DNA of 64,000 nt from Bacillota bacterium (GTDB taxonomy: Bacteria; Bacillota; Sulfobacillia; JAJYWN01). The stretch is from contig JAJYWN010000064.1 of the NCBI GenBank assembly GCA_021791495.1, forward strand, positions 10,139 through 74,138, written 5' to 3'. Position 1 is the first letter of the stretch. Every line of letters starts with the position of its first letter. Positions 3,502-58,656 of this stretch are shown here, piece after piece. The position numbers were made by a program, and so were the translations under genes. The notes under the pieces are model-generated. The model did not search any database. It was given only the letters and a program-made list of their open reading frames with translations, and was not told the origin of the DNA.

Positions 3502-4008
3502 ATGGAGAAGGAGGTGGCGCGGCAGCCCCAACGGGCTGCCGCTTTTGTCATGCCTGAGAAGGAATCGAGAAAGAGGGTCGACCTGGTCCGCCTGAAGATG
3601 GTGCGGGAGTCGTCGACGCTCTACGAGCCGCGCCGGATCGAGTCGCCGAAGGCGGCGGCGGACCTCTTCCGCCAGTTCATCGGCGACGCCGACCGGGAGC
3701 AGATGATGGTCTGCTGCCTGGACGTCAGGAACCAACCGACGTGCCTACATGTGACCAGCATTGGCACGCTGGCCGCCGCTGCGGTCCACCCGCGCGAAGT
3801 ATTCAAGACAGCGGTCCTAGCCAACGCGGCCAGCATCATCGTCGGCCACAACCACCCCAGCGGGGACTGCGCCCCGAGCCGGGAGGACATCGAGGTGACC
3901 AGCCGGCTCCGTGAAGCCGGGCGTGTCCTCGGGATCGAGGTCTTGGATCACGTCATCGTCGGTGGAGCAGCGCACGTGAGCCTGCGCGAGCAGGGAATTG
4001 TGGCCTAG
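3502..4008 (+). CDS. RadC-like JAB/MPN domain protein (DUF2466 family; typical of mobile-element or anti-restriction regions)
   Basis: The C-terminal domain carries the conserved HNHPSG motif and the ED..TSRL pattern characteristic of RadC-like JAB proteins. Confidence 0.8.
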   Translation: MEKEVARQPQRAAAFVMPEKESRKRVDLVRLKMVRESSTLYEPRRIESPKAAADLFRQFIGDADREQMMVCCLDVRNQPTCLHVTSIGTLAAAAVHPREVFKTAVLANAASIIVGHNHPSGDCAPSREDIEVTSRLREAGRVLGIEVLDHVIVGGAAHVSLREQGIVA

Positions 4009-4048
4009 CCTCTTCACCGCAATCATCGCTTCGAAAGGGGGGACCACC

Positions 4049-4123
4049 GTGGACCCGCTCTTGCTGTTGGAGATCGCAGTCGCGATCCTACTCGTTGTGC
4101 TGAAGCATGAGGACAAAAAGTAG
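4049..4123 (+). CDS. putative 24-aa hydrophobic peptide (small membrane peptide, type I toxin-like)
   Basis: A GTG start preceded by AAGGGGGG at SD-like spacing. The translation MDPLLLLEIAVAILLVVLKHEDKK is a single TM helix with a KK tail. It was not in the ORF track because it is under 60 aa. Confidence 0.3.
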   Translation: MDPLLLLEIAVAILLVVLKHEDKK

Positions 4124-4249
4124 AAATGACGGCGAACTCGCCGAGTCACTCCGCATGGTTGCAAGCTTGTATCGTTTGTACTCCACTATTGCGGGCTGGA
4201 TCGGAGTAGTGTCGCAGCAGTATTAAAGCAACTACGTCCAGAGGCGGAG

Positions 4250-4627
4250 GTGAGTGTTCTGGACAGTGATAGCAGACCTGCGCCGATACGTTGTGAGAGG
4301 CGCGGTGGCTTTGAGATCCGCATTCTTGCCGAGGAGCACTTGCCCCTCACGGCAGCCGACCGCCTGGCAATCGGGGTTGAGCCGTTCCTCAAGCACGGCG
4401 CATTCTTTCGAGCAACGTGGTGGGAGGGGTATGGGCAGCGGCCATCCATTGACGTAGCTGTCGTCAAGAGTGAGACGGATGCTGAGGGGCAAGGAGACGC
4501 GTGGTCTCTCTCTGGGGAGAGTCCATCTGATTTCCGCCGAGTAGTGAATGGGCTTCGGGAGAGCGGACACCGTTTCCTTTGGCGGGAGCTCGACTACGAC
4601 GACGGTCTGCTGGGAGGGCCGACCTAG
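4250..4627 (+). CDS. hypothetical protein (125 aa)
   Basis: ORF with a GGAGG-like sequence upstream. No recognizable domains. Confidence 0.35.
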   Translation: MSVLDSDSRPAPIRCERRGGFEIRILAEEHLPLTAADRLAIGVEPFLKHGAFFRATWWEGYGQRPSIDVAVVKSETDAEGQGDAWSLSGESPSDFRRVVNGLRESGHRFLWRELDYDDGLLGGPT

Positions 4628-4689
4628 CAACGCTGCCAGGTCCTCCTTTTTTTTCGTTGTGCGCCATGTTCGCTCCCACGAAGACGCCG

Positions 4690-6140
4690 GGAACCCCAGA
4701 ATCGTCGAAACGCCGGGCCTCGCCAGCCGCCCGGCCCGGAAGACCCCCCAGGGCGTAGCTCGGGAGCCTGCTGCTCGCTTGCGAGCCCACTTGCGGCCCT
4801 GGACCGGCAGTGAAGCGTTTGGGCTCGCGCGTGCTTTCGGCCCGCCCTTGTGAGCCGTTCCCGTCCACTCGCCGCCGCCGGGCGCCCGGCCGGCTAGGCA
4901 TGCCAGAAACTCCGCCCTTCTTGTCGCACTCGCTCGCGAGTCGGCGCTTGTTCCCTACTTCACAAGGGCGGGTTTCAACAACTCCATGTGCGATATGGAA
5001 ACGCGACGGCTAGCCGGTGGGCGCAGAAGCGTCACCTTTCCGGTCTTGCCGCGCCTCGGGCCCCGAGCCCCCGTTGGACGCCGCTCCGGGGCCCCCGGCG
5101 ATCCCCGTCCGGATTTACGCCCCTTCCGGCTCGACCGGGGGTGCAGGCCGTCGGTGGCGGCTTGCCTGCCGGCCTGCCCGGCTATCGCCGCCGACGGGTG
5201 GTCCGCTGCCCGAGAAGCCGGAGGGCAGGCGGAGGGCCCCTGCGGCCGCGCGCCCCGGCAAGCCGTGGAGATCGACGCTCCGCGGCTCCCTGGTTGGCTA
5301 GGGCGTCGGCCAGTAACTTGGTAGGGAGTTTGGCCAAAGGCCGTCTCGGTCGTCCTGGGGCTGAACCCGTAATCGCCGCTCCCCGCCGGGCCATCCGGCC
5401 CGAGCGCCACCAGGGCGTCGCTCAAACGCCTGCCCCCGCTCGGGGGCCCGCCTTTCGGCCTTGGACCGATAGTTGCGCCCTTTGGGCTCGCGCCAGCTTG
5501 CGGGCGCTCGCGGGAGCCGTCTTTGCTTGATCGCCGCCGCGGGGCGTCCAGCCAGCCAGGCAAGCCAGGAACTCCGCCCTCCACCGTCACTCATGCTTGC
5601 AGGCCGACAATTCTTCCAGATTCCACGATGGCAGGAGCTAACAAATATATGTAGGGCATCAAAACGCGACAACTGCCCGACGGGCGCAGAAGCGCCGCCG
5701 TTGCGGTGTTGCCGCCCCTTCGAGCCTCGAGCACCCGTCCGACGCCGCTGCGGGGCCCTGGGCAATCACCGTCCGGATCTACGCCCCTTCCGGCTCGACC
5801 GGCAGGGCCGGCCGTCGATGGCGGCTTACCTCCGGGCCTGCCCGGTTACTGCCGCCGACCGGCGGTCCGCGGTGGGGGAGGCGGGAGAATGGGCGGAAGG
5901 CGCCCGCGCCCTCGCGCCCCGGCAAGCCGTGGAGATCGACGCTCTCACGGACCCATGCCAGGTCTGGGCGTGGCTTTGACACGGGGTAAGGGTTCCGCAG
6001 TTGCGGCCAGGCACAGAGCACTGGTCAGCCGACCTGCATGCCGTCCATTCCAGATGAGGATCACCCAACTCGCCGCCAGAAGCACCGAAAGCCATCGCAC
6101 CGCCCCAGTGCTCGTTGTTCAACCAGGAAACCCGAGGAGG
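4690..6140. repeat. tandem array of about 2.3 diverged ~664-bp repeat units (partial unit ~4690-4815, unit A ~4816-5479, unit B ~5480-6140)
   Basis: Direct sequence comparison gives a consistent 663-664 bp offset. TTTGGGCTCG is at 4818 and 5481, AAACGCGAC at 4999 and 5662, and GATCGACGCTC at 5270 and 5934. Identity is about 80-85% over ~300-bp cores. The region is GC-rich and every reading frame is Arg/Pro-rich. Confidence 0.8.
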
Positions 6141-6227
6141 TGGTGGCCCTATGAGCGGATAACGCGGCTCCCGCCGCCGTGAACCCCGACTCAACATAAA
6201 ACCACACCATAGAGGAGGCTGAACATC

Positions 6228-6776
6228 GTGGATAAGAGACCGATCCCAAAGCCTGGCCCAAAGGGCCTCGCTGTTCCCATCGTGAGGCGAACCGTCAGCT
6301 ATCCGAAGGAGGACGCAACGGCGACAGCCGCACCCGACGCTTTCGGGCTAGCCGAGTTCGCCCAAGAGTGGCGCGAGACCGACGCTATGGCGGATTTCTC
6401 CCGAATTCCCAACGGCGTCTACGCCGTGGAGGTCAGGCGGGTGGGTCTCCGCCGCAAGGAGCCCGATGTCTACCTGGACTGGGTCCTGCAGGTCGTGGAA
6501 GGCGACCACGCCGGGAGGCAGGTTCGGAAGTCCCTGCCCTTCCGGTTGGGCAAGACCATCCGGTACCTCAAACACGACCTCTCGACGGTGGGGCTGGGCG
6601 ACGTCGAACTGCAAGAGCTGCCGCCTAGGCTGCAGGAAGCGCGCGGCCGGTTGGTCGAGGTCCGCGTGAGTGGCCAGGAAAACCTGCCGGACGTCTGGTT
6701 CGCCCGAGGGCTGTCGGAGGAAGCCGGGGACAACGGCCCTGTGGACGAAAGCCCTGATGATCGAGGGACCCTATGA
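6228..6776 (+). CDS. hypothetical protein, paralog family 1 of 2 (shares the DLS.VGLG.VELQ.LP motif with 8781..9224)
   Basis: GTG start with AGAGGAGG 8 nt upstream. Its stop overlaps the start of the next gene (ATGA). Confidence 0.55.
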   Translation: MDKRPIPKPGPKGLAVPIVRRTVSYPKEDATATAAPDAFGLAEFAQEWRETDAMADFSRIPNGVYAVEVRRVGLRRKEPDVYLDWVLQVVEGDHAGRQVRKSLPFRLGKTIRYLKHDLSTVGLGDVELQELPPRLQEARGRLVEVRVSGQENLPDVWFARGLSEEAGDNGPVDESPDDRGTL

Positions 6777-8332
6777 AGAAGTCGAGAGTCCAGACTGGCG
6801 GGGGGCCGGGGCGCCCCCCCGCCCCTCCACCCGGCGGTGCGCGTCCCACAATCGACACGGGGCACAGAAACCTGGCGGAGATGACGGCGGCGGCGTGGGA
6901 GGCCATGCGCCTGGCGAACGGGGACGAACCTAAGTACTTCGCCTCCGGCTCGCAGGTGGTCATGCTTGTTGACCGAGGCCAGCAGTTGCCGACGGTCTTG
7001 GCCCTGGATTTCTATTCCCTTCGCCGGGAACTCGCGACCTGTACCGACTGGATGCGCTTTGACGGGGACGGACACCCCTGGGACGAGTTTCCCGTCAAAG
7101 CCTGCGTCGAGACGATGTTGTCTTACCCCAATCCACCCCTCCCCGCACTCAACCGGGTGGTCGGAGTCCCGGTCCTGAGGCCGGACGGGACGCTACTAGA
7201 CCGCGCCGGGTACGATGCGGTTTCGGGGCTGTACCTCTACCCGACCTGCGACGTCGTTCTGCCAGACGGCCAACTGGGACCCGACGACATAGCCGCGGCG
7301 CTGGCCGTGATCGACGCCCTCCTGTGCGACTTCCCCTTCGTCGGGAGCGCGGACAGGGCGTTGGCGTTCGCGACCCTGCTGGAACCGTTCGTCCGGGAGA
7401 CGTTCGAGGGGCCAACGCCCCTCAGGTGCGTCGACGCGGTTTCCGGACAGGGAACCGGGAAGGACCTCTTGGCGACGACGCTAATGTACCCGTTCGCCGG
7501 CCGCGAGGAGTCGGCCCTGACCGAAGGGAGCACCGACGACGAGTGGCGGAAGAGGCTGACGGCGGCGTTGCTTCGGAAGCCCACCTTCATCTACATAAGC
7601 AACGTGCAGCGCACCCTGGACTCGGCGGCTCTGGCCGCCGCCCTGACGACCACCAACTGGGAGGACCGCATCCTGGGCCAGAGCCGGACCGTCGTCCTCC
7701 CGAACCGGAGCACTTGGATCGCGACTGGGAACGGAATCACCACTTCGCGGGAACTCCGTCGGAGGGTCCTCAAGATCGTCCTGGACGCGAGGCAGGAGTG
7801 CCCGTGGTTGCGCACGGGCTTCCGCCACAACCTGGTCGAGTGGCGCCAGGAGCACCGAGGCGAGATCGTCGGGGCAGCGCTGACCCTCGCCACCGCCTGG
7901 GTCCAGAGGGGGCGACCCCTGGGCACTGCGGTTCTCGGTTCCTACGAACGGTGGGCTGCGACCATGGGGGGAATCCTGGACGCCGCCGGCGTCCCAGGAT
8001 TCCTGGAGAACCTGGGGGGCGCCCAGGAGTCGTTCGATGAAGAGACCAGGCAGCTTCTGGATTTCCTCCGTGCCTGGTGGGCGACGTTCGGGAGCCGTGC
8101 CGTGACCGCCGGGGAACTCCGCACCGGCCTGTCCGAAGACGTGCTCCCGCTGGCCGTTTCCGACGGATTCTCCGGCGGCCAGACGATCCGCCTCGGGAAG
8201 CTGCTGGTGGGCCTAGTGGGGCGGCATCTTGGAGGCGTGCACGTCGCCTTGGCAACCCCGGACAGGTCCCGGAAACTCCAGCGTTACCGGCTGGAGACGG
8301 TGGAGACGCACCCACAGTTCCCGGAGGTGTAG
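6773..8332 (+). CDS. hypothetical 519-aa protein (mobile-element associated; degenerate P-loop-like GQGTGKD segment; possible replication/primase-helicase-like function)
   Basis: A long ORF translationally coupled to the upstream small protein. There is no confidently recognizable family. Confidence 0.5.
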   Translation: MKKSRVQTGGGPGRPPAPPPGGARPTIDTGHRNLAEMTAAAWEAMRLANGDEPKYFASGSQVVMLVDRGQQLPTVLALDFYSLRRELATCTDWMRFDGDGHPWDEFPVKACVETMLSYPNPPLPALNRVVGVPVLRPDGTLLDRAGYDAVSGLYLYPTCDVVLPDGQLGPDDIAAALAVIDALLCDFPFVGSADRALAFATLLEPFVRETFEGPTPLRCVDAVSGQGTGKDLLATTLMYPFAGREESALTEGSTDDEWRKRLTAALLRKPTFIYISNVQRTLDSAALAAALTTTNWEDRILGQSRTVVLPNRSTWIATGNGITTSRELRRRVLKIVLDARQECPWLRTGFRHNLVEWRQEHRGEIVGAALTLATAWVQRGRPLGTAVLGSYERWAATMGGILDAAGVPGFLENLGGAQESFDEETRQLLDFLRAWWATFGSRAVTAGELRTGLSEDVLPLAVSDGFSGGQTIRLGKLLVGLVGRHLGGVHVALATPDRSRKLQRYRLETVETHPQFPEV

Positions 8333-8780
8333 GCGGGGCCAATCCCCGAAACGCCCGTATCCGAAAGTGCCAGCTCAGGTGGCAGATGACGGGGGGCTCG
8401 GGAAGATCGGGTAGTTGCCGGCCCCCCGAAAATGGCCGTTCGGCTACGGAAAGGGCTGGGAAGGGTCCGGCGCCTCCCCGCTCTCCCCGAACTCCCCGGT
8501 CGAAACTACCATACGGTCGCTGATCAACCGCGCCCTTCTGGTTCGCCCCGCTCTGCCATGCTGTCGATCCTGCCCACTCCGGTCCATAGCTCCTCCGGCG
8601 CTAGCCACGGCCGGGGGGGTGTGGGCCAGCGTGGGCAGTCCATGCCATACTCCCAATCGAGGGGAGGTCAGAATGCACATGGGTACGTGACTGACGCACG
8701 CTGCCGCCCGAGCGCGCTATTGAGGTTGCGACAGCATCTCTCGCTACGTTCAAGACTACTCTGAGGAGGCTAAACAAACG

Positions 8781-9224
8781 ATGCTCAGCGATTCCATACC
8801 GAAACCAGTCGCGGTGACGGTCTTCCCCTTAGCGGGCGACCGACCAGTGTTAGTGGTTGTGGGCTTGAGGGGTCTGGTGGGCCTGGAGGCGACCGGACCC
8901 ATTCCGAGCGCCACCTACAAGGCAACAATCCGGACAATCGACCTATGCAAGGGGAAAGACGGCTATGTCCTGACCTGGGGCCTGGTAATGGCTGGTGGGG
9001 ACCTAGACGGCCGGTACTTTGAAGTGGTACGTGGTCCTTTCGAGGAAGGCGAGAGGTACGAGGATGTCCGGCTGGACCTCTCCCTGGTGGGACTCGGCGG
9101 GGTTGAGCTCCAGCAACTGCCGTGCGTTCTCGGCGTCGCCTTGGGTTACACCCTGGACATCCTCGTCTCGGGCGCGAATAACATCAAGTTCCTCTGCTCG
9201 TTGAACCAGATGCAGGTTGACTGA
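8781..9224 (+). CDS. hypothetical protein, paralog family 2 of 2 (related to 6228..6776)
   Basis: ATG with CTGAGGAGGCTAAACA upstream, similar to the leader of 6228. It has the shared C-terminal motif DLSLVGLGGVELQQLP. Confidence 0.5.
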   Translation: MLSDSIPKPVAVTVFPLAGDRPVLVVVGLRGLVGLEATGPIPSATYKATIRTIDLCKGKDGYVLTWGLVMAGGDLDGRYFEVVRGPFEEGERYEDVRLDLSLVGLGGVELQQLPCVLGVALGYTLDILVSGANNIKFLCSLNQMQVD

Positions 9225-9580: not shown

Positions 9581-9802
9581 ATGCAGATGCTGATCGAAGA
9601 CGCAACGACTTCAAACCTAGACCGCTCGGGAGCGGCCACGGAGATGCTCACCGTCGCCCAAGCCGCCCATTTCCTTCGCTTACATCCTGCCACGCTCTAC
9701 CGGCTCGTCAAGGAAGGGGCCCTGCCGTGCATCCGGCTCGGCAGGCTCATTAGGATTCCCATGTCGGCCATCCTTGGGTTGGTAAGGCCGTCTGCGATGT
9801 AA
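9581..9802 (+). CDS. xis: excisionase-family helix-turn-helix DNA-binding protein (Xis); the start may be at 9644
   Basis: LTVAQAAHFLRLHPATLYRLVKEGALPCIRLGRLIRIP matches the excisionase/MerR-like HTH family. It sits immediately upstream of the integrase. Confidence 0.65.
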   Translation: MQMLIEDATTSNLDRSGAATEMLTVAQAAHFLRLHPATLYRLVKEGALPCIRLGRLIRIPMSAILGLVRPSAM

Positions 9803-9905
9803 GGGCTCCGGGCCATGGGCAGCGGCGGGGCCGGCCCGCCCCAGGCAGGGCCCCAGCCGCTGCCTTCATGACCCTGTTTCGAGAGACATTGGAGGGAGGA
9901 ACCGC

Positions 9906-11120
9906 ATGTCGATCCGGAAGACCAAATATGGCACATACGAAACCAAGGTCTACCAGGGGGTGGACCCGGCCACCGGCAGAGAAGCCTACGCCTACCGGAC
10001 GTTTAAGACCAAGGCCGAAGCGAAGCGCTTCGAGGCCGATGCCAAACGCTCCGTTGAGGAGCAGGAGCACAGACCACCCACAGAACTGACCGTCGTCGAG
10101 TTCCTTCAGGAATGGCTGGAGAAGGACGTCAGGCCCAACCTCAAGCGCCGCACCGCCTTGCGCTACGAGCAGTTGATCCGTGTCCAGGTCGCGCCGGCCA
10201 TTGGGCGCGTCCCGCTTGCGAAGCTCTCGGCGCGCGACGTGGCCAGCTTCCTTGCGGGCCTGAAAGCGCAGGTTGCCGATCGGACCCGCCTGCACGCCTA
10301 CCGGGTCCTCCATCGGGCGCTGAACGTCGCCGTCCAGTGGGGCCTCGTTGGGAGGAACGCTTGCGACGGGGTGAAGGCTCCGAAGGCGGCTCAGCCGGTG
10401 CTCCACGTGCTAGAGGCATCCGAAGTCGAGGCCCTCCTGAGGACGGCCAAGAAGGAGAGGATCTACCCACTCGTCCTGACCGCAGTCATGACGGGAATGC
10501 GCGTTGGAGAACTGTGCGGGTTGCGGTGGCAGGACGTAGACTTGGAGGATCGCGTGGCCACCGTGGCACAGGCGCTTGACAAGCCGGGACTGCAGCCCCT
10601 GTTCACGACGCCGAAGAACAGAAAGACACGCAAGGTTCCCCTTGCCCCGGATCTCGCGGAGACGCTGCGCGCGTGGCGGGCGGGGCAGGCGAAGGAGAAG
10701 CTGTTCTTCGGCCAGGAGTATGTTAGCATGGGCCTAGTCTTCTGCCAGCCCGACGGGCGTCCCCTGAACCCTCAGAGCCTGACCAGGCATACCTGGAAGA
10801 GGATCAGTAGGGCTGCGGGATTGCCCAACGGCATCCGATTCCATGACCTCCGGCACACCTTCATCTCAAGGGCACTGCAGGCCGGGGCTAACCCCAGGGC
10901 AGTCGCCGAGATTGCCGGACACCATGACGCGTCGTTCACGCTGCGAGTGTACGCCGGCGTGACCCTGAACGACTCCAGGGAGGCGGTGGCACAGCTCCAG
11001 GACTACCTGGCATTCAAGGGAGGCGGCCTCGTCCCAGCCCTGGCACCGGCAGACCGGCCTTCGCCGTCGACGAGCTCAAGCCGAAGTCCTGGCCTCCGCC
11101 TTCGCGTGTCGAAGGCATAG
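9906..11120 (+). CDS. int: tyrosine-type site-specific recombinase / phage integrase
   Basis: It has an N-terminal SAM-like domain and the C-terminal catalytic signature (R..HDLRHTF..Y). The C-terminal low-complexity tail may be read-through. Confidence 0.85.
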   Translation: MSIRKTKYGTYETKVYQGVDPATGREAYAYRTFKTKAEAKRFEADAKRSVEEQEHRPPTELTVVEFLQEWLEKDVRPNLKRRTALRYEQLIRVQVAPAIGRVPLAKLSARDVASFLAGLKAQVADRTRLHAYRVLHRALNVAVQWGLVGRNACDGVKAPKAAQPVLHVLEASEVEALLRTAKKERIYPLVLTAVMTGMRVGELCGLRWQDVDLEDRVATVAQALDKPGLQPLFTTPKNRKTRKVPLAPDLAETLRAWRAGQAKEKLFFGQEYVSMGLVFCQPDGRPLNPQSLTRHTWKRISRAAGLPNGIRFHDLRHTFISRALQAGANPRAVAEIAGHHDASFTLRVYAGVTLNDSREAVAQLQDYLAFKGGGLVPALAPADRPSPSTSSSRSPGLRLRVSKA

Positions 11121-11220
11121 CACCAATAGGTGGTAAGCATGCAGCCAGAAGGCTCCAAGGAGGGCCAAGCCAAAGTTGCTGGTCGAGTTGCCGTTTCTGG
11201 CCAGCTTCCAAGTGACCAAC

Positions 11221-11258
11221 CGAAACCCTCCCTTTCACTACAGGGCGGGAGGGTTTCG
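11221..11258. other. perfect 12-bp inverted repeat (CGAAACCCTCCC / GGGAGGGTTTCG) with a 14-nt loop
   Basis: Seen directly, 100 bp downstream of the integrase stop. There is no U-tract after it. It could be a structural or recombination-related hairpin, or a factor-binding site. Confidence 0.5.
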
Positions 11259-11755
11259 CGTTGGCGCTATCCTGGGAAGGAATCGCCCCTACCTCTTGCC
11301 GAAGAAGCATCTGGCCCTCACGGTTTCGTCAAGGGAGTGGCAGTGTTGTTGTCTCCGCCGTTACTGCGGTTTCCTGCGGATTACCCGCCCGATTGCCCGA
11401 TTTCCGGGGCTCATCCCGTCACCTGGTCCGTATGGTACTTGGTGGATCAGTCGCCACCATCCGCCGATGACTTCAGGCCTTTGGCTGTAAAAGAGGGTCG
11501 AGCGAACTACGAGCGACGCAACAACCGACAGAAATGCATGGCCAGGGGCATATCTGTTTGGACGGACAGGTCGGCTGTCCTGGTTGCGCAGTCTCTAAAT
11601 CCGGGACTGGCGGGAAAGCTGCTTGCGCGTGGTACGATAAAGCCTACAGATGGCTGGGTGGCTCAAACGGGGGGAAATCCTGCCCACCACACGTGGTGGC
11701 CTTTTGAAGGAGTATCTCCGCATACGATTTTCCAGGTTGAGGGGAGGTGAGCGGA

Positions 11756-12946
11756 GTGGCCCACGAGATTGAATTGTTGACTCCTTTCGGGGTGCTGGGC
11801 ATAAGCGAAGTTTGGGTCGAGTTCAACGGGCCTCGGCTGTTCACCTGTGAGAACGCAGCCGGACATGCCTACATAGGGATGTGGGTCATGGAAGGCAAGG
11901 ACAGGGATGTTTATCTCTTTATGGCCGTCAGCCATGAACGTCTGGAAACTATACGCAGAGGCATGATGCCATTGTGTGTGGCTATCGTTTCTTCCGAATG
12001 CGGTATTGAAGAGGTCACCTTCTTCCCGGACGGTTCGGTAGCCAAATCCCGACACCTGGATGCGGAGCAGATCCCGAAAGAGTACCTCCCCTCAGAGGAT
12101 GCGGTAGTGACAATCTACGAGGATCAGGAACACCGAGAGCCCGAGATCACTTCGGTCACAATGGCTGTTCGAAGCCGGCGGGAGATCGTGGACGTGTGTG
12201 TTGATGGGGGAGCAGCTAGATTCCACGAATTGCAGACCAGGCGCCTAGGGACCCTCCTACTGAACACCCAAGATCTCTTGGATGACCTTGCCAACCCGGA
12301 ATCCGCCACCAGAGGAAGATTGCCCAAGGCGCTGATTGACGAGACGCAGTTCAATGCACTACCGGTAGCCGCAGGTTCTTTCCGAATACGTCTGGCGTCG
12401 GCCAATGCTTGTGACCTCTTCTTTGACACGGGAATGGCGACCAAAGCGGCAAGACAGATGGTCGACCTCATCCAGGCGTGTGCCAAGCCGGATAGCCTCG
12501 GGCCTGCTGCAGAAGGCATCGGCCCTCGCGCAGCAGGGAAGCTTCGTGACCTGTTGGGCGATCTGTCCGCTGATGGACTGAGCCTAACTGTGGACTGGGG
12601 ATCGCCTGCCGACCACAGGAACGTGGCACGGCTTTCCGGTAGGGAGGTTCACGAAGCTTTCACTGCCCTCACCCAGAAAGCCCTACCGGTCTCCTCCATC
12701 TTCACGGTCCATGGAAGGCTGACCGGTCTGGACACCGATAAGCGGTCCTTCAGGTTTCACGCTGACGACGGCAGTCTGTACACTGGATCATATACCGACA
12801 ATTGCGCGGAAGAAGTTCTTATGCGTCTGGCCAGGCAGGAAGGCGGGACGCCGTCGACCGCCACTATCGAGCAGATAGTCGTGGTTGTCCCGGCGACTGG
12901 GGAAACCAAGACAAGCAACATATTACGGACGTTGATCCCGGATTAG
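11756..12946 (+). CDS. hypothetical 397-aa protein (orphan cargo gene; the start may alternatively be GTG at 11747)
   Basis: A long ORF with GAGGGGAGG upstream. Its composition is of lower GC than the flanks. No recognizable domains. Confidence 0.55.
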   Translation: MAHEIELLTPFGVLGISEVWVEFNGPRLFTCENAAGHAYIGMWVMEGKDRDVYLFMAVSHERLETIRRGMMPLCVAIVSSECGIEEVTFFPDGSVAKSRHLDAEQIPKEYLPSEDAVVTIYEDQEHREPEITSVTMAVRSRREIVDVCVDGGAARFHELQTRRLGTLLLNTQDLLDDLANPESATRGRLPKALIDETQFNALPVAAGSFRIRLASANACDLFFDTGMATKAARQMVDLIQACAKPDSLGPAAEGIGPRAAGKLRDLLGDLSADGLSLTVDWGSPADHRNVARLSGREVHEAFTALTQKALPVSSIFTVHGRLTGLDTDKRSFRFHADDGSLYTGSYTDNCAEEVLMRLARQEGGTPSTATIEQIVVVVPATGETKTSNILRTLIPD

Positions 12947-13134
12947 GAGGTGGACGCAAGCCGACCCGGGCATTCTCCGACAGCCGAAACGCTTCCACGC
13001 GCTCCTTTCCACGATTGAGCTCCCTCTCCGGCCTCCGAGAGCTGCCTCCACTTGGTTCAATTTTGCGAGAGAAGCATCTCCGTGCCCGACGACAAACCGC
13101 AAACAGTAATGTCAAGATGACTGTCCCGCGGCAG

Positions 13135-13210
13135 AATCCGGGGTCGGCAAAAGACCGCCCCGGGGGCGGTACGCGCAAATCGTTGTCCGGTAATTGCGCC
13201 CGGGAGGACT
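13135..13210. repeat. att-like direct repeat copy: duplicate of the tRNA-Arg(CCU) 3' end plus its downstream hairpin region
   Basis: CAAATCGTTGT...TGCGCCCGGGAGGACT (13176-13210) matches 14821-14856. AATCCGGGG...hairpin (13135-13175) matches 14767-14820. Confidence 0.7.
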
Positions 13211-13729
13211 TTAGCCACCGCGCCGGTCTCTTGTCAGAATCGTGTCCACCAAATCTGCGTATTCCCGTGAGCCCTCCACGCGCGGGCCAGCATCGTGCTC
13301 GATAGCGTGCCGAGCTTTCTCCAGCGGAAGATCGGCCAGAGTACGGGCGATTGCCCAAACGCCTTGCTCCCGCTTCTGTGTTGGTAGATTCTTGACCCCC
13401 AGGGTTTCCGCAAATCGTCTTAGATCCTTGGCCTCCGGCAGCAATTCTCGAGACATCATCTGACTCAACACCTGGGATAAAAAAGCATACATCTGTGGGT
13501 TTTGTTCCCTCAACTCAGTCAGGAAAGCGGATCGTGTGCTTTTTGCCTTGCTTCCGGGGCGCAAGTCTCTACGGGCATTGAGCTTATCCAGAGATCGCAA
13601 AATCCTGCCGAGAGGTTCGGTCTCCGAGTCACCTTCCAGGATGCTGGTGACGTCAAGAATATCCCGTCTTGAGTACGTCTCCCCAATGATCAGCATTTCA
13701 AGAAGTAGCTTCTTGTTTGTTGTCATCAC
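13211..13729 (-). CDS. hypothetical protein, putative ParA partner (172 aa)
   Basis: It overlaps the parA stop by 4 nt (ATGA). Low-GC composition. Confidence 0.5.
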   Translation of the reverse strand: MMTTNKKLLLEMLIIGETYSRRDILDVTSILEGDSETEPLGRILRSLDKLNARRDLRPGSKAKSTRSAFLTELREQNPQMYAFLSQVLSQMMSRELLPEAKDLRRFAETLGVKNLPTQKREQGVWAIARTLADLPLEKARHAIEHDAGPRVEGSREYADLVDTILTRDRRGG

Positions 13730-14766: not shown

Positions 14767-14856
14767 TAATCCGGGGTAAAATCCGGGGTGGTCCGAAGAC
14801 CACCCCGGGGTTGGTCGGCACAAATCGTTGTGCCGCAATGTGCGCCCGGGAGGACT
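14767..14856. repeat. att-like direct repeat copy at the tRNA-Arg(CCU) 3' end, including a perfect terminator-like hairpin CCGGGGTGGTC-CGAA-GACCACCCCGG (14784-14809)
   Basis: See the matching copy at 13135-13210. Confidence 0.7.
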
Positions 14857-14914
14857 CGAACCACCGGCACGCGGTTTAGGAAACCGCTGCTCTATCCACC
14901 TGAGCTACGGGCGC
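14841..14914 (-). tRNA. tRNA-Arg (anticodon CCU)
   Basis: Manual cloverleaf: acceptor GCGCCCG, D-loop AGGTGGATAGAGC, anticodon loop TTCCTAA, T-arm GGTTCGAGTCC, discriminator A, and no encoded CCA. Confidence 0.85.
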
Positions 14915-33565: not shown

Positions 33566-33854
33566 GTCCGTTTGTTTGCGCCGCGGGCGGCTCCTTCGAC
33601 CGACGCCTACGAGGTTAGCTGACGGGTTGGGGCAGTCGAAGTCGCCCCTCCGCTTACGGCGGATTCACCCCAGGGAATTGGGTCCCCCGTTCCTTTTCAG
33701 GATTCGGCGTTTACGGGATGAAACTGTATACCTGCACGGTTTGTGCTGTAAAGGTTCAATGTCACCCTTGTCGTTTCCTTCTTGTTGTAGCTGCGCCTTT
33801 GGCTCACCTGGCACGTGTCATGAAGCACTTCTCGGTCGTTGTAAAGGAAAATCG

Positions 33855-33895: not shown

Positions 33896-33902
33896 TCGCT
33901 TG

Positions 33903-33977
33903 TGCGCCCGGCAGGATTCGAACCTGCGACCTCCAGATTCGTAGTCTGTCACTCTAATCCAACTGAGCTACGGGCGC
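33903..33977 (-). tRNA. tRNA-Arg (anticodon ACG)
   Basis: Manual cloverleaf: acceptor GCGCCCG, anticodon loop CTACGAA, T-arm GGTTCGAATCC, discriminator A. Confidence 0.8.
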
Positions 33978-33985
33978 ATATCCGG

Positions 33986-34076
33986 CGGAGAGAGAGGGAT
34001 TCGAACCCTCGCTGGAGTGAACACCCCACTAACGGTTTAGCAAACCGTCCCCTTCAGCCGACTTGGGTATCTCTCC
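33986..34076 (-). tRNA. tRNA-Ser (anticodon GCU)
   Basis: Acceptor GGAGAGA, anticodon loop TTGCTAA, a long variable arm, and T-arm GGTTCGAATCC. Confidence 0.8.
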
Positions 34077-34157: not shown

Positions 34158-35660
34158 TTAACGCTTAACTATAATAGCACAGCCACGCGTCGAAAACAAG
34201 CAAACGCCGCCGCCGGAGTCTGTCAAGCTAATGTGGGAGCTTCGGTAGTCGAAGGTTTTCAAAGACCTGCTGGAAGTGTTTGGTTGATCTTGTGAAAAAA
34301 GCTTTGAGAGTCCGTGCGAAGCATTAGCTCCGGCTCCCATGATCGGCACGTTGCCCTTCACTGAGGCTAGCGCCGTGTTTGTCAGGTCAAAGGTGATTCT
34401 TCGGACGCCCTCTTTGAGACTTTCGGTTTCCATCAATCCGCGGACCGCCGCCACTTGGTGTGCATAGGCCCTCAGCCGGCCCTCGAAACGCTGCCCTAGC
34501 GCCCGCAGGATGGCTCTTAGCCCTTCTTGCCCCCAACTCTGGCCCCTGCCTTGCAGCCGCCGTTTGAACCGGGCCACGTTGGACTCCGCGGCTCCCAAAG
34601 CCCGGAGGCCCGTCACGTCCACGCCCTTCTCCCGGAGCCGCATGCGGTAATCCACCAGGCCCTGCGGGTAGCTTGCCAAATCCTCTATCAGGTTTAGCAG
34701 CTCTTTGTCCTTGGGGGCTTTCTCCTGGGCCCGACAGAGCGCCGCCAGAACCTGGTCGGGATTGTCGCCCTCTAGGCCCCGCCGCGCCGCCTCCTGTTCC
34801 TCTGGGAAGAGCCTCAAAAGCCTCTTGAAGTCCCGTTTCAAGTGGAACCGGTCGAACTGGTACATCGCATGGTGAAAGTACTCCATGCCTTCCCGGATCC
34901 ACTTGGCTCGGTCGCCGTTAATAGCCACCCATGTGTCGGCGAGATCGTATTCGCTGTACAGTTTGCGGCTGCCCGTCTCCCAGAAGTCCTCCCCGGCACC
35001 GTCGTCCACGTAGTGGCGCCGGTGGACCAGCGAATACTCCTTCCCTGACGGGCTTTTCCTCTCCCAGCCCTCATGGGACGTCAGCTTCTTAGTCTCTTGT
35101 TTTGGCGCGCCCTGCCGGGACACGTACAGGCCGTCGGCCTCGATTAGCAGCACCGGGACCTTCCGTTCTCCGGCCGGGTCCGCCAGTTCCCGCTTCAGAT
35201 CCTCGCCAATGGCGTCTCCGACCTCCAACACTCTCTGCCGGATGGTCTCGTGGCTCACCGGCGGATACTCGTAAATCCGCTCCAGGCTGTCCCTTGCCGC
35301 CCGATAGGACGCGCCTTCCACACCTTCCAAAACAGCCACCTCGACCAGACCCGGACTCAGCCGCTCCCGCTTCTCTAGCCCCAACGCCTCGTCCAGGAGG
35401 GCCACGATCTGGCCTGTCTCCCGGTCCAGATAAGTCCGCCTGCTGAACCGCAGCTTCCCAAACAACGTGTCTATCTCTCGTGAACGCAAGTCCTTGGCCT
35501 GGTATCGCTCCTTGTCCCGGCTCTTGAGCAGCGACCCGTCCAGAAACTCCAGCACTTGCTCCAGCACTTTGACCAACAGGGCGCTAAGCATCCTGAATGC
35601 TTCTCTCTCCAAAACTGAAAACGAAAAGGAACTCGGGGTGGATTCCGTGAAGATTGCCAC
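34158..35660 (-). mobile_element. ISLre2-family (UPF0236) transposase gene; IS ends not determined (approx 34100-35950)
   Basis: A 500-aa ORF resembling ISLre2-family transposases. It is inserted next to the tRNA genes. Confidence 0.6.
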
Positions 35661-57195: not shown

Positions 57196-58656
57196 CTAAC
57201 CTTTCATTACCGCCAGGGGGCGCAAACGCGCCACCTTCCGGGCGATGCCGGCGGCGTCGGTCACGCGCACCACGTCGTTGACATCCTTATAGGCCTCCGG
57301 CGCTTCTTCCGCCAGCGTGGCGTTACTGGTGGCGCGTACGGAGATGCCGCGCCGTTCCAGCTCCGCCTTGAGTTCGGCCCCGCGCGTTTCCTTCTTCGCC
57401 TCGCTCCGGCTCATCAGGCGGCCGGCGCCGTGGCAGGCCGACCCAAATGTCTCGGCCATGGCCTTCTCCGTTCCGACGAGAATATACGAGTTTCGGCCCA
57501 TGTCGCCCGGCACCAGGACCGGCTGCCCGGTGGATCGGTAGGCCGCCGGCAGTTCGGCGTGGCCGGCCGGAAAGGCACGGGTGGCGCCCTTGCGGTGCAC
57601 ACAAAGCACCCGTTGGCGTCCTTCGACAGTGTGCCTCTCTTTCTTGGCGATATTATGGGCCACGTCGTAGAGGAGCGAGAGCCCCAGGCGTTCTGGCGTC
57701 GATCCGAGGATGCGGGCGATCGTCTCGCGTGTCCAGTGCATGAGACACTGGCGGTTGGCCCAGGCGTAGTTGGCGGCGGCGGCCATGGCCGACAGATAGG
57801 CCTGCCCTTCGGACGAATTCACGGGAGCGCAGGCCAGTTGCCGGTCGGGGAGATGCAGGTCGTACTTCTTCGCCGCCTGGGCCATGACGTCAAGGTAGTC
57901 GGTGCAAACCTGGTGCCCCAGGCCGCGGGAGCCGGAGTGGATGGACACCACGACTTGTCCGGCGGAGAGGCCGAAGGTGGCCGCGACCGCCGGATCGTAG
58001 ATTGTCTCGACCAGTTGGACCTCAAGGAAATGATTGCCCGAACCCAAGGTGCCCAATTGGTCGTGTCCACGCTTAAAGGCGCGGGGCGATACTTTTCCGG
58101 GATCGACGCCTGGTAGGGAGCCGCCGGCCTCAGTGAAGGCTAGGTCTTCGGGGGCGCCGTACCCTTTCTCCACCGCCCAGGCGGCGCCGCGGGTCAGAAC
58201 TTCCTCCATCTCGCGGCGCTCCACCTTGATCTTCCCGCCCGAACCGACGCCCGAGGGGATATTGTCGAAGAGGGCGCCGATGAGTTGGTCAAGGTGGGGG
58301 CGGACGTCGGCCTCAGTCAAGTTCGTCCGGACAACGCGGACGCCACAGTTGATGTCGTACCCGACCCCGCCGGGCGAGACCACGCCCTGGTCCCAGTCGG
58401 TGGCGGCCACTCCTCCGATGGGGAAGCCGTAGCCCCAATGGATATCCGGCATGGCCAAGGAGGCGCCGACGATGCCCGGGAGGGTAGCCACGTTGGCCAC
58501 CTGCTCGGGCGCTTGATCCTCTTTGATGGACGGCAGAAGGCCAGCGTCGGCATAGATGATCCCGTCCACCCGCATCCCGGACTTGTACCCTCTGGGGATG
58601 CGCCAACGGTTGGCGTCGATCTGCTCAAGTTTGCCTTGCCACCCGGCCATAGACAT
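57196..58656 (-). CDS. rtcB: RNA-splicing ligase RtcB
   Basis: Conserved His/Cys metal-binding residues across 486 aa. Confidence 0.9.
   Translation of the reverse strand: MSMAGWQGKLEQIDANRWRIPRGYKSGMRVDGIIYADAGLLPSIKEDQAPEQVANVATLPGIVGASLAMPDIHWGYGFPIGGVAATDWDQGVVSPGGVGYDINCGVRVVRTNLTEADVRPHLDQLIGALFDNIPSGVGSGGKIKVERREMEEVLTRGAAWAVEKGYGAPEDLAFTEAGGSLPGVDPGKVSPRAFKRGHDQLGTLGSGNHFLEVQLVETIYDPAVAATFGLSAGQVVVSIHSGSRGLGHQVCTDYLDVMAQAAKKYDLHLPDRQLACAPVNSSEGQAYLSAMAAAANYAWANRQCLMHWTRETIARILGSTPERLGLSLLYDVAHNIAKKERHTVEGRQRVLCVHRKGATRAFPAGHAELPAAYRSTGQPVLVPGDMGRNSYILVGTEKAMAETFGSACHGAGRLMSRSEAKKETRGAELKAELERRGISVRATSNATLAEEAPEAYKDVNDVVRVTDAAGIARKVARLRPLAVMKG

Follow-up and report, generated by a model that had tools for sequence, protein, structure and literature searches.

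Why would a mobile element carry, immediately ahead of its replication genes, two long and GC-rich copies of a sequence in which no protein can be recognized? The repeat that raises this question lies within positions 4690-6140 of the window, by which is meant the whole 64-kb stretch of DNA analyzed here. A preliminary description of the locus had entertained three kinds of answer: a pair of structured RNA genes, iterons or an origin serving the adjacent replication-like module, or the remnants of a duplicated gene.

Judged by its neighbors, the repeat lies inside an integrative element, directly upstream of that element's replication-type module. Ahead of it come type I restriction-modification genes on the minus strand, a 78-aa ORF, a RadC gene (3502-4008) and a 125-aa ORF; behind it follow a 182-aa gene, a 519-aa gene, a gene for a 147-aa paralogue, an HTH_17 excisionase-like gene and a tyrosine integrase gene. 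The putative replication-type module (6228-8332, plus strand) is made up of the 182-aa DUF669/SSB-like gene (6228-6776), whose Pfam DUF669 and PHROG SSB matches are both weak, and the helicase-type gene for the 519-aa protein (6773-8332), the start of which it overlaps. The 147-aa protein is 38% identical to its 182-aa paralogue. The match of the 519-aa protein is to the helicase-type part at the C-terminus of a large protein family (among 8,000 candidates scored, 317 relatives had E<=0.001). The protein's best non-self relative is 44% identical to it, and it lacks the N-terminal primase domain (PF09250, Toprim and others) carried by many homologues of 800-900 aa. On the other flank, the 125-aa ORF (orf125; 4250-4627, plus strand) is an orphan whose coding signal is weak (GC of 0.69/0.50/0.64 at the three codon positions); it finds only itself in the protein collection and has no Pfam, PHROG or PADLOC match. 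A probable intrinsic terminator of orf125 (4612-4654, plus strand), composed of a 9-bp GC stem followed by T8 (-24.3 kcal/mol, z=-2.2), lies about 55 nt upstream of the repeat. The window sequence is also present on a 329-kb contig of the metagenome-assembled genome GCA_027420595.1. The possibility that the neighbors form an RNA-using defense system was rejected, no PADLOC match adjoining the repeat.

The repeat itself is direct and tandem. A repeat finder recovered four in-register families with a start-to-start spacing of 662-664 nt, the largest of which pairs 225 ungapped nt at 82% identity (5056-5280 and 5720-5944). Local alignment of 4708-5280 with 5371-5944 gives 431 identical positions among 568 aligned (76%) and a score of 389, compared with 24.7±3.0 for shuffled sequence; with the laxer scoring of blastn the match reaches 5306/5971, and identity is 74-76% across methods. 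The 663-664 bp tandem period of the preliminary description is thus borne out, and its three anchors are found where it had placed them: TTTGGGCTCG at 4818/5481, AAACGCGAC at 4999/5662 and GATCGACGCTC at 5270/5934. Copy A accordingly spans 4708-5306 (secure alignment 4708-5280; direct-repeat families D1, D2, D4 and D5) and copy B spans 5371-5971 (secure alignment 5371-5944), neither being assigned a strand, as is also the case for the other repeat features given below. Between them, 5307-5370 is a spacer or decayed tail that is not significantly similar to the sequence past copy B. More broadly, global alignment of the final ~90 nt of the two 663-nt periods (5281-5370 and 5945-6033) scores as shuffles do (P=0.20). 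Since the end of each period is without significant similarity, the anatomy is one of two copies of ~575-600 nt with a spacer of ~65-90 nt between them, the spacer being either unrelated or fully decayed. The earlier count of ~2.3 copies has to be reduced to two, as the presumed third partial unit, from 6017 onward, fails to align.

Independent data also show both copies, A and B; the locus occurs in the runs SRR13178629 and SRR13201255. Where two Logan assemblies made from different runs overlap the window, they match it at 100% identity. Their contigs break exactly at a 32-nt block of perfect identity between the copies: L004 ends at 5278 and L003 starts at ~5915, inside the B copy (by blastn, L003:1 corresponds to unit B position 545). 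The break is explained by the k=31 assembly graph together with the identity of this block in copies A and B. A RadC cluster mate, P0122, was considered as a strain variant and rejected on the same grounds, as it is the same DNA, from contigs that simply break at the 32-nt exact repeat.

Does either copy encode a protein? In the two long ungapped blocks of the alignment, mismatches are spread evenly over the codon phases (14/13/13 and 13/19/14), so that the codon-position periodicity check proposed in the preliminary description, carried out between the units, returns no coding signature. Whichever of the six frames is read, about 10 of the 32-33 changed codons are synonymous, and with no synonymous excess in any of them, no frame is under purifying selection. 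GC1, GC2 and GC3 are flat in all repeat-region ORFs at ~0.7 (~0.65-0.75), while real neighboring genes have GC2 of 0.41-0.51 and GC3 of 0.74-0.85; likewise, a sliding period-3 contrast is 0.05-0.11 over ~4560-6240 and 0.3-0.49 in genes. Pfam and PHROGs return zero matches for any repeat-region ORF. The public record annotates a 202-aa minus-strand CDS across the repeat, and this ORF matches only itself among 5.8 billion proteins; a 180-aa plus-strand ORF has zero matches in an exhaustive HMMER search of 1.84 billion representatives. The earlier remark that the region holds no convincing coding frame is therefore well founded, by its even phases, its flat codon-position GC, its want of homologues and its lack of a period-3 signal. 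The annotated 202-aa CDS is best regarded, on these sequence comparisons, as spurious.

A sequence that is non-coding today could still descend from a gene. According to this explanation, the copies would be what is left of a former gene, for instance the primase domain of the 519-aa protein's homologues, that was duplicated and then decayed. The missing primase domain of the 519-aa protein, a unit of ~660 nt that is gene-sized and the CDS annotated in the public record all lend it some appeal. However, a tblastn search of 4009-6227 with helicase-family proteins, primase-fused members included, and with all other ORFs of the window returned noise only, the best E-values (~0.14 and 4e-4) belonging to short low-complexity pieces. 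The period-3 signal is missing, no ORF has a match in the family or protein databases, and the pattern of substitutions is that of DNA that has been non-coding for essentially all of the time since duplication. With both residual periodicity and translated similarity absent, the suggestion of gene remnants is left without positive evidence, and we consider it very improbable.

The base composition of the region might seem to call for a special explanation. Its GC content is 0.71, and its composition is flat and near the GC3 of neighboring genes. The stretch without coding periodicity, ~4680-6360, is the longest in the 64-kb window and the only such signal-free stretch to exceed the window's mean GC (0.71, the others having 0.50-0.64). 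Ordinary intergenic DNA is drawn AT-ward by its promoters and terminators. The simple reading of the high GC is that DNA free of signals should tend toward such a composition under the local bias of mutation and repair.

Could the copies be two paralogous non-coding RNA genes, each transcribed from a lower-GC island through a better-conserved core? Several large structured RNAs of prophages and islands offer a comparison: like GOLLD, ROOL, HEARO and ORF-less group II introns, the unit is ~600 nt long, GC-rich, non-coding and located in a mobile element. Unlike any of these, it has no match to their covariance models at E<=10, nor any thermodynamic or covariation evidence of structure. Indeed, a search of Rfam 15, which includes GOLLD, ROOL, HEARO, OLE, raiA, group I and II introns and riboswitches, gave no match at gathering score. 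The sole hit at E<=10 is a 35-nt MS2-operator-like hairpin at 6036-6070, downstream of unit B, with 20 bits against a gathering score of 40; this is a chance match. Minimum free energies of the full units, the cores and the 5' halves, on both strands, fall at z between -1.39 and +1.03 relative to dinucleotide shuffles. A hairpin that the preliminary description took to close unit A (GCCCCC-GCTC-GGGGGC) is present at 5432-5447, followed by CCGCCTTTC, but in the present anatomy it lies near the start of unit B. Its unit A counterpart (4773-4786) has a different stem and a 2-nt offset, and neither hairpin folds better than shuffles.

Covariation between the copies points the same way. For the core, RNAalifold finds 7 compensatory pairs on the plus strand and 3 on the minus strand, compared with ~6 in column shuffles, and the structure conservation index (SCI; 0.61/0.68) and the consensus energy both lie inside the column-shuffle null. 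For the full units there are 14 and 12 compensatory pairs where 15.6 are expected. In the most direct test, pairs of each unit's own MFE structure that are hit by substitutions stay pairable in 29-35% of cases, which does not differ from controls with slid partners, at 26-38%. The core and adjoining sequence at 4921-5280 contain ~85 substitutions within ~360 nt, enough that a conserved fold, if genuine, should have been evident. The covariation analysis that had been proposed for homologues, run here between the two units, thus yields compensatory pairs and SCI values within the shuffle nulls. A single positive hint comes from the minus strand, where the consensus energy of the full units is somewhat better than that of column shuffles (z of about -2.3), with an SCI of 0.66 against 0.59. 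Covariation is absent on this strand, and the SCI is low in absolute terms.

Signals for transcription are no more suggestive. No terminator was found after either core, and no promoter-like element is common to both units. As orf125 has a terminator of its own, any transcript over the repeat would need its own promoter. This would suit dedicated RNA genes, as would the island-then-core layout of both units, the greater conservation of the core relative to the remainder and the weak minus-strand energy signal, and such RNAs might act by primary sequence or through a structure missed by thermodynamic prediction. Against them stand the missing Rfam family, even among large prophage-associated RNAs, the lack of surplus folding stability or compensatory change, with pairs breaking at the rate of chance, and the missing promoter and terminators. 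Antisense pairing was rejected as well. Paired with ten translation-initiation regions, both strands of both units form predicted duplexes that all fall short of the background median in strength, a 12/13 match of the repeat to the start of the integrase gene is unremarkable, and complementarity to the island's translation-initiation regions is therefore not outstanding. The earlier proposal of a pair of structured RNA genes consequently finds no Rfam match, folding z-scores near 0 and no excess of compensatory changes, and RNA genes of any kind seem to us quite improbable here.

More intriguing is the uneven divergence of the copies, which amounts to ~0.29 substitutions per site overall. The best split of the alignment falls at 5019 and separates a 5' part of 70.3% identity from a 3' core of 82.4% (permutation-corrected P=0.009). 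Jukes-Cantor distances tell the same story: the 5' part (4708-5032) has 0.36, the core (5033-5280) 0.21. The better-conserved core occupies 5019-5280 in copy A and 5682-5944 in copy B, where the two align at 82% identity and GC rises as high as 0.88; the conserved core of the preliminary description corresponds to these segments. Indels between the copies are of 1-2 nt, belong to the 5' half and all lie at or upstream of 5056; the core has one gap, of 1 nt at 5055/5056, and its last 225 nt are gap-free. Two blocks within it are identical in both copies: 23 nt (TACGCCCCTTCCGGCTCGACCGG) at 5116-5138, with its B copy at 5780-5802, and 32 nt (CGCGCCCCGGCAAGCCGTGGAGATCGACGCTC) at 5249-5280, with its B copy at 5913-5944. 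The latter is the longest perfect run between the copies (run-length P=0.016). Patchy gene conversion and weak DNA-level constraint on the core explain this unevenness, and the persistence of the repeat, equally well.

Adjoining the cores are lower-GC islands, which lie at 4948-5008 in copy A (GC 0.47-0.53) and at 5611-5671 in copy B (GC 0.40-0.45), in surroundings of 0.75-0.88. The copy A island is the least conserved segment, at ~60% identity, and the copy B island holds the sole sigma-70-like match, TTGTCG-17-TATATT on the minus strand, which the equivalent bases of copy A do not match. Of the short AT-richer segment with promoter-like hexamers that had been described for each unit, the in-register islands (0.40-0.53) are thus present, but the hexamers are not conserved between units.

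These features invite comparison with the replication regions of satellite elements. Ziegelin and Lanka are said to have described, in 1995, a cis replication region of phage P4 that consists of two long direct repeats. The Vibrio satellite PLE has its origin in an extensive, repeat-rich non-coding region (PMC7145576). Like P4 ori/crr and PLE, the locus described here combines large non-coding direct repeats with an adjacent initiator or helicase gene of the element's own, in an element that bears an integrase. The working parts of P4 and PLE, however, are short iterons repeated several times together with AT-rich DNA, whereas the present repeat has no enriched short repeat, a GC content of 0.71 and a unit of ~600 nt. 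Within each unit, 7- to 10-mers recur no more often than in shuffles, which leaves the iterons of the preliminary description unsupported. A 13-nt perfect inverted repeat (4841-4853 / 4960-4972) occurs in unit A only. Its motif is not enriched in the window, and CCGCCCTTGTGA was rejected as a binding site, as 10 matches compare with 8.6 expected. The 11-mers conserved between the units are no more frequent in the rest of the island than shuffled k-mers (27, against 21.8±4.1), and a cluster of them near 9700-9910 was dismissed as sites because it consists of the HTH_17 gene's coding sequence and the start of the integrase gene.

A cis-acting region for the SSB-like/helicase module, be it a replication origin, an enhancer-like 'crr' or an operator, would assign each repeat a protein-binding core, with the invariant 23- and 32-nt blocks, beside an easily melted lower-GC island. 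Such a role fits the replication-type genes immediately downstream, the islands (0.40-0.53) that lie in register in both units, the significantly better conserved 3' core with its two perfect blocks and the precedents of PLE (PMC7145576) and phage P4. Nonetheless, short motifs within and between the units are no more repeated than in shuffles, no further occurrence of the conserved blocks was found in the island, and the lower-GC islands retain a GC content of ~45-50% and have the lowest conservation in the unit. Related helicase elements are without a comparable region. Furthermore, the composition common to both units follows from their shared ancestry and so is not independent evidence for a cis region. 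What survives of the proposed origin for the adjacent replication-like module is its adjacency; the hallmark short repeated binding sites are absent. On balance, we regard a cis-acting role as unlikely, although it is the main rival explanation.

Other kinds of mobile or programmed sequence fare no better. The ends of the units have no terminal inverted repeats and the 64-kb window holds no other copy, so that signs of a miniature transposable element are lacking. A weak blastn match of 177 nt and 62% identity to 57212-57386 was discarded, as it lies inside an RtcB gene and reflects GC-rich composition. A diversity-generating retroelement pair was likewise rejected, there being no reverse transcriptase among the neighboring genes; mismatches involving A in either copy number 56 of 137 and run in both directions, which is not the pattern of such a pair.

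The preliminary description had also pointed to other genomes and metagenomes as a place to look for the unit. A blastn 'distant' search of phage and plasmid collections with both units gave no match. Scans for exact matches to the two longest invariant blocks, with a 19-mer anchor in metagenomes, gave 1 viral locus, 57 GTDB genome loci and 63 JGI metagenome loci. The viral locus is a chance match inside an unrelated phage gene, and the GTDB and JGI loci were set aside because blastn and nhmmer extend them by at most 20-50 nt past the anchor; around the 63 metagenome loci, identity in the 30-nt flanks averages 32%, which is background. No relative of the unit was thus found in the phage, plasmid, viral, GTDB-genome or JGI-metagenome collections. 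This agrees with one half of the condition that the preliminary description had set for a decaying duplication, namely the half on conservation outside the strain. The related helicase elements have a compact layout of HTH_17 genes, a small ORF and the helicase, and show nothing like the 1.6-kb spacer seen here. At the same time, this element and its host have been sampled very thinly: the closest helicase shares 44% identity, orf125 has no homologue, and even GyrA and SerS fall in clusters of one or two sequences. The missing homologues are, as a result, weak evidence against function.

Taken together, the two copies are homologous and non-coding, and have neither conserved RNA structure, nor internal short repeats, nor detectable relatives. 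The repeat is real but apparently ordinary by every computational test. The explanation that we prefer, and to which we give about an even chance, is that non-coding spacer DNA, functionless or weakly constrained, was duplicated in tandem long ago and has since undergone mostly neutral decay. Some 600-660 bp of non-coding DNA would have been duplicated in tandem ~0.29 substitutions per site ago, presumably by unequal recombination or replication slippage. The copies would then have diverged largely neutrally, as the even substitution spectrum and the indels of 1-2 nt suggest, while the tail decayed past recognition and the base composition probably drifted to the third-codon-position GC of the neighborhood. 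The 3' core and its 23- and 32-nt blocks may have been kept alike by patchy gene conversion or by weak DNA-level constraint. The segment would at most be a spacer or leader ahead of the replication operon, and we do not think that it encodes a dedicated RNA or protein product.

An old neutral duplication accounts for much of what is seen. As in ordinary segmental tandem duplications of intergenic DNA, which later diverge with occasional gene conversion, the copies lie nearly head to tail at a constant spacing, with evenly spread substitutions, short indels, eroded ends and stretches of perfect identity. Unlike those, the repeat is unusually long and long-lived for functionless bacterial DNA, and unusually GC-rich for the window. 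Bacteria usually delete functionless DNA. It counts against neutrality that ~1.3 kb has persisted to 24% divergence with indels of 1-2 nt alone. The non-uniform divergence (82% versus 70%), the 32-nt run and the minus-strand energy z of about -2.3 weigh on the same side. So does the location of the longest signal-free and GC-rich stretch, with a replication module, where cis sites are expected, directly downstream.

These observations leave some room for a more unusual interpretation, namely that the units form a cis element of a new, long-repeat kind, or else two unstructured RNAs, controlling replication or immunity in little-sampled integrative elements. We hold this to be distinctly unlikely. 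The 23- and 32-nt blocks would then be recognition sites and the lower-GC islands melting or promoter sites, in an element with a stand-alone, primase-less helicase.

As it stands, the repeat matters little, being one further diverged tandem duplication in a mobile element. Its analysis shows that the 202-aa CDS of the public record is almost certainly spurious. If, on the other hand, the core were a replication or regulatory site, its importance would be modest: it would define the cis element of a widespread, uncharacterized helicase family of integrative elements, and would provide an example of unusually long, GC-rich control repeats.

The public annotation places a 202-aa coding sequence (P0127) on the reverse strand at 4955-5563, spanning the core of unit A, which is the better-conserved 3' part of the first of the two diverged tandem copies, together with the start of unit B, the second copy. 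The GC content of P0127 is flat across codon positions, its sequence is rich in Arg, Pro and Gly, and the only match in a homologue search was P0127 itself. The gene call is almost certainly spurious. Unit A also carries a perfect 13-nt inverted repeat, with arms at 4841-4853 (CCCGCCCTTGTGA) and 4960-4972 (TCACAAGGGCGGG) spaced by 106 nt, that is confined to this copy, as the homologous positions of unit B are non-complementary. Upstream of the repeat, on the forward strand, an orphan 125-aa ORF followed by a hairpin occupies 4250-4654. Coding statistics for the ORF are weak, and a search of 5.8 billion proteins yielded no homologue; the hairpin (4612-4654) is a convincing terminator-like stem followed by T8.

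Downstream, the forward-strand gene at 6773-8332 encodes a 519-aa helicase-type protein that has no Pfam domain and to which no PDB entry is related in sequence. Many of its homologues, 800-900 aa long, carry an N-terminal primase domain that is absent from the 519-aa protein; the rest of the island showed no primase either. Flanking this gene, one on each side and also on the forward strand, are two DUF669/SSB-like paralogues (6228-6776 and 8781-9224) that have diverged to 38% identity over 97 aa. A further stretch of about 450 nt devoid of coding signal, in addition to the repeat region, precedes the second paralogue (8333-8780, GC ~0.63-0.66). Besides the unit A/B repeat, the island holds a further old duplication in its type I R-M cluster: the two adjacent HsdM-type methylase genes are ~66% identical at the nucleotide level across ~600 nt (541-1134 and 2034-2627).

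Directly 3' of the integrase, two forward-strand genes (11130-11750 and 11747-12946) weakly match, in order, both components of the PD-T4-10 anti-phage system (component A, E=2.5e-5; component B, E=6.5e-7), the second also matching DUF6575, and they may represent defence cargo of the island. Further along lie the two copies of a ~92-nt direct repeat (13130-13222 and 14775-14866, ~80-87% identical), with a ParA-like gene and a 172-aa gene between them. The repeat takes in the 3' end of tRNA-Arg(CCT) (14840-14914, reverse strand) and ~65 nt downstream of it, and the pair resembles att-type scars left by integration at this tRNA. Within the window, the island that carries the integrase showed no corresponding repeat for its left end. 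Elsewhere, a strong c-di-AMP (ydaO-type) riboswitch (33589-33719, 106.6 bits) adjoins a tRNA-Arg(ACG)/tRNA-Ser(GCT) pair (33902-34076) and an ISLre2-family transposase gene (34158-35660), all on the reverse strand.

Two independent Logan assemblies cover parts of the repeat locus, and the end of one contig (L004, window position 5278) and the start of the other (L003, ~5915) both fall exactly at the 32-nt block common to units A and B (5249-5280 and 5913-5944). These breaks are an assembly-graph effect, and in short-contig collections they could make the repeat locus seem truncated or single-copy.
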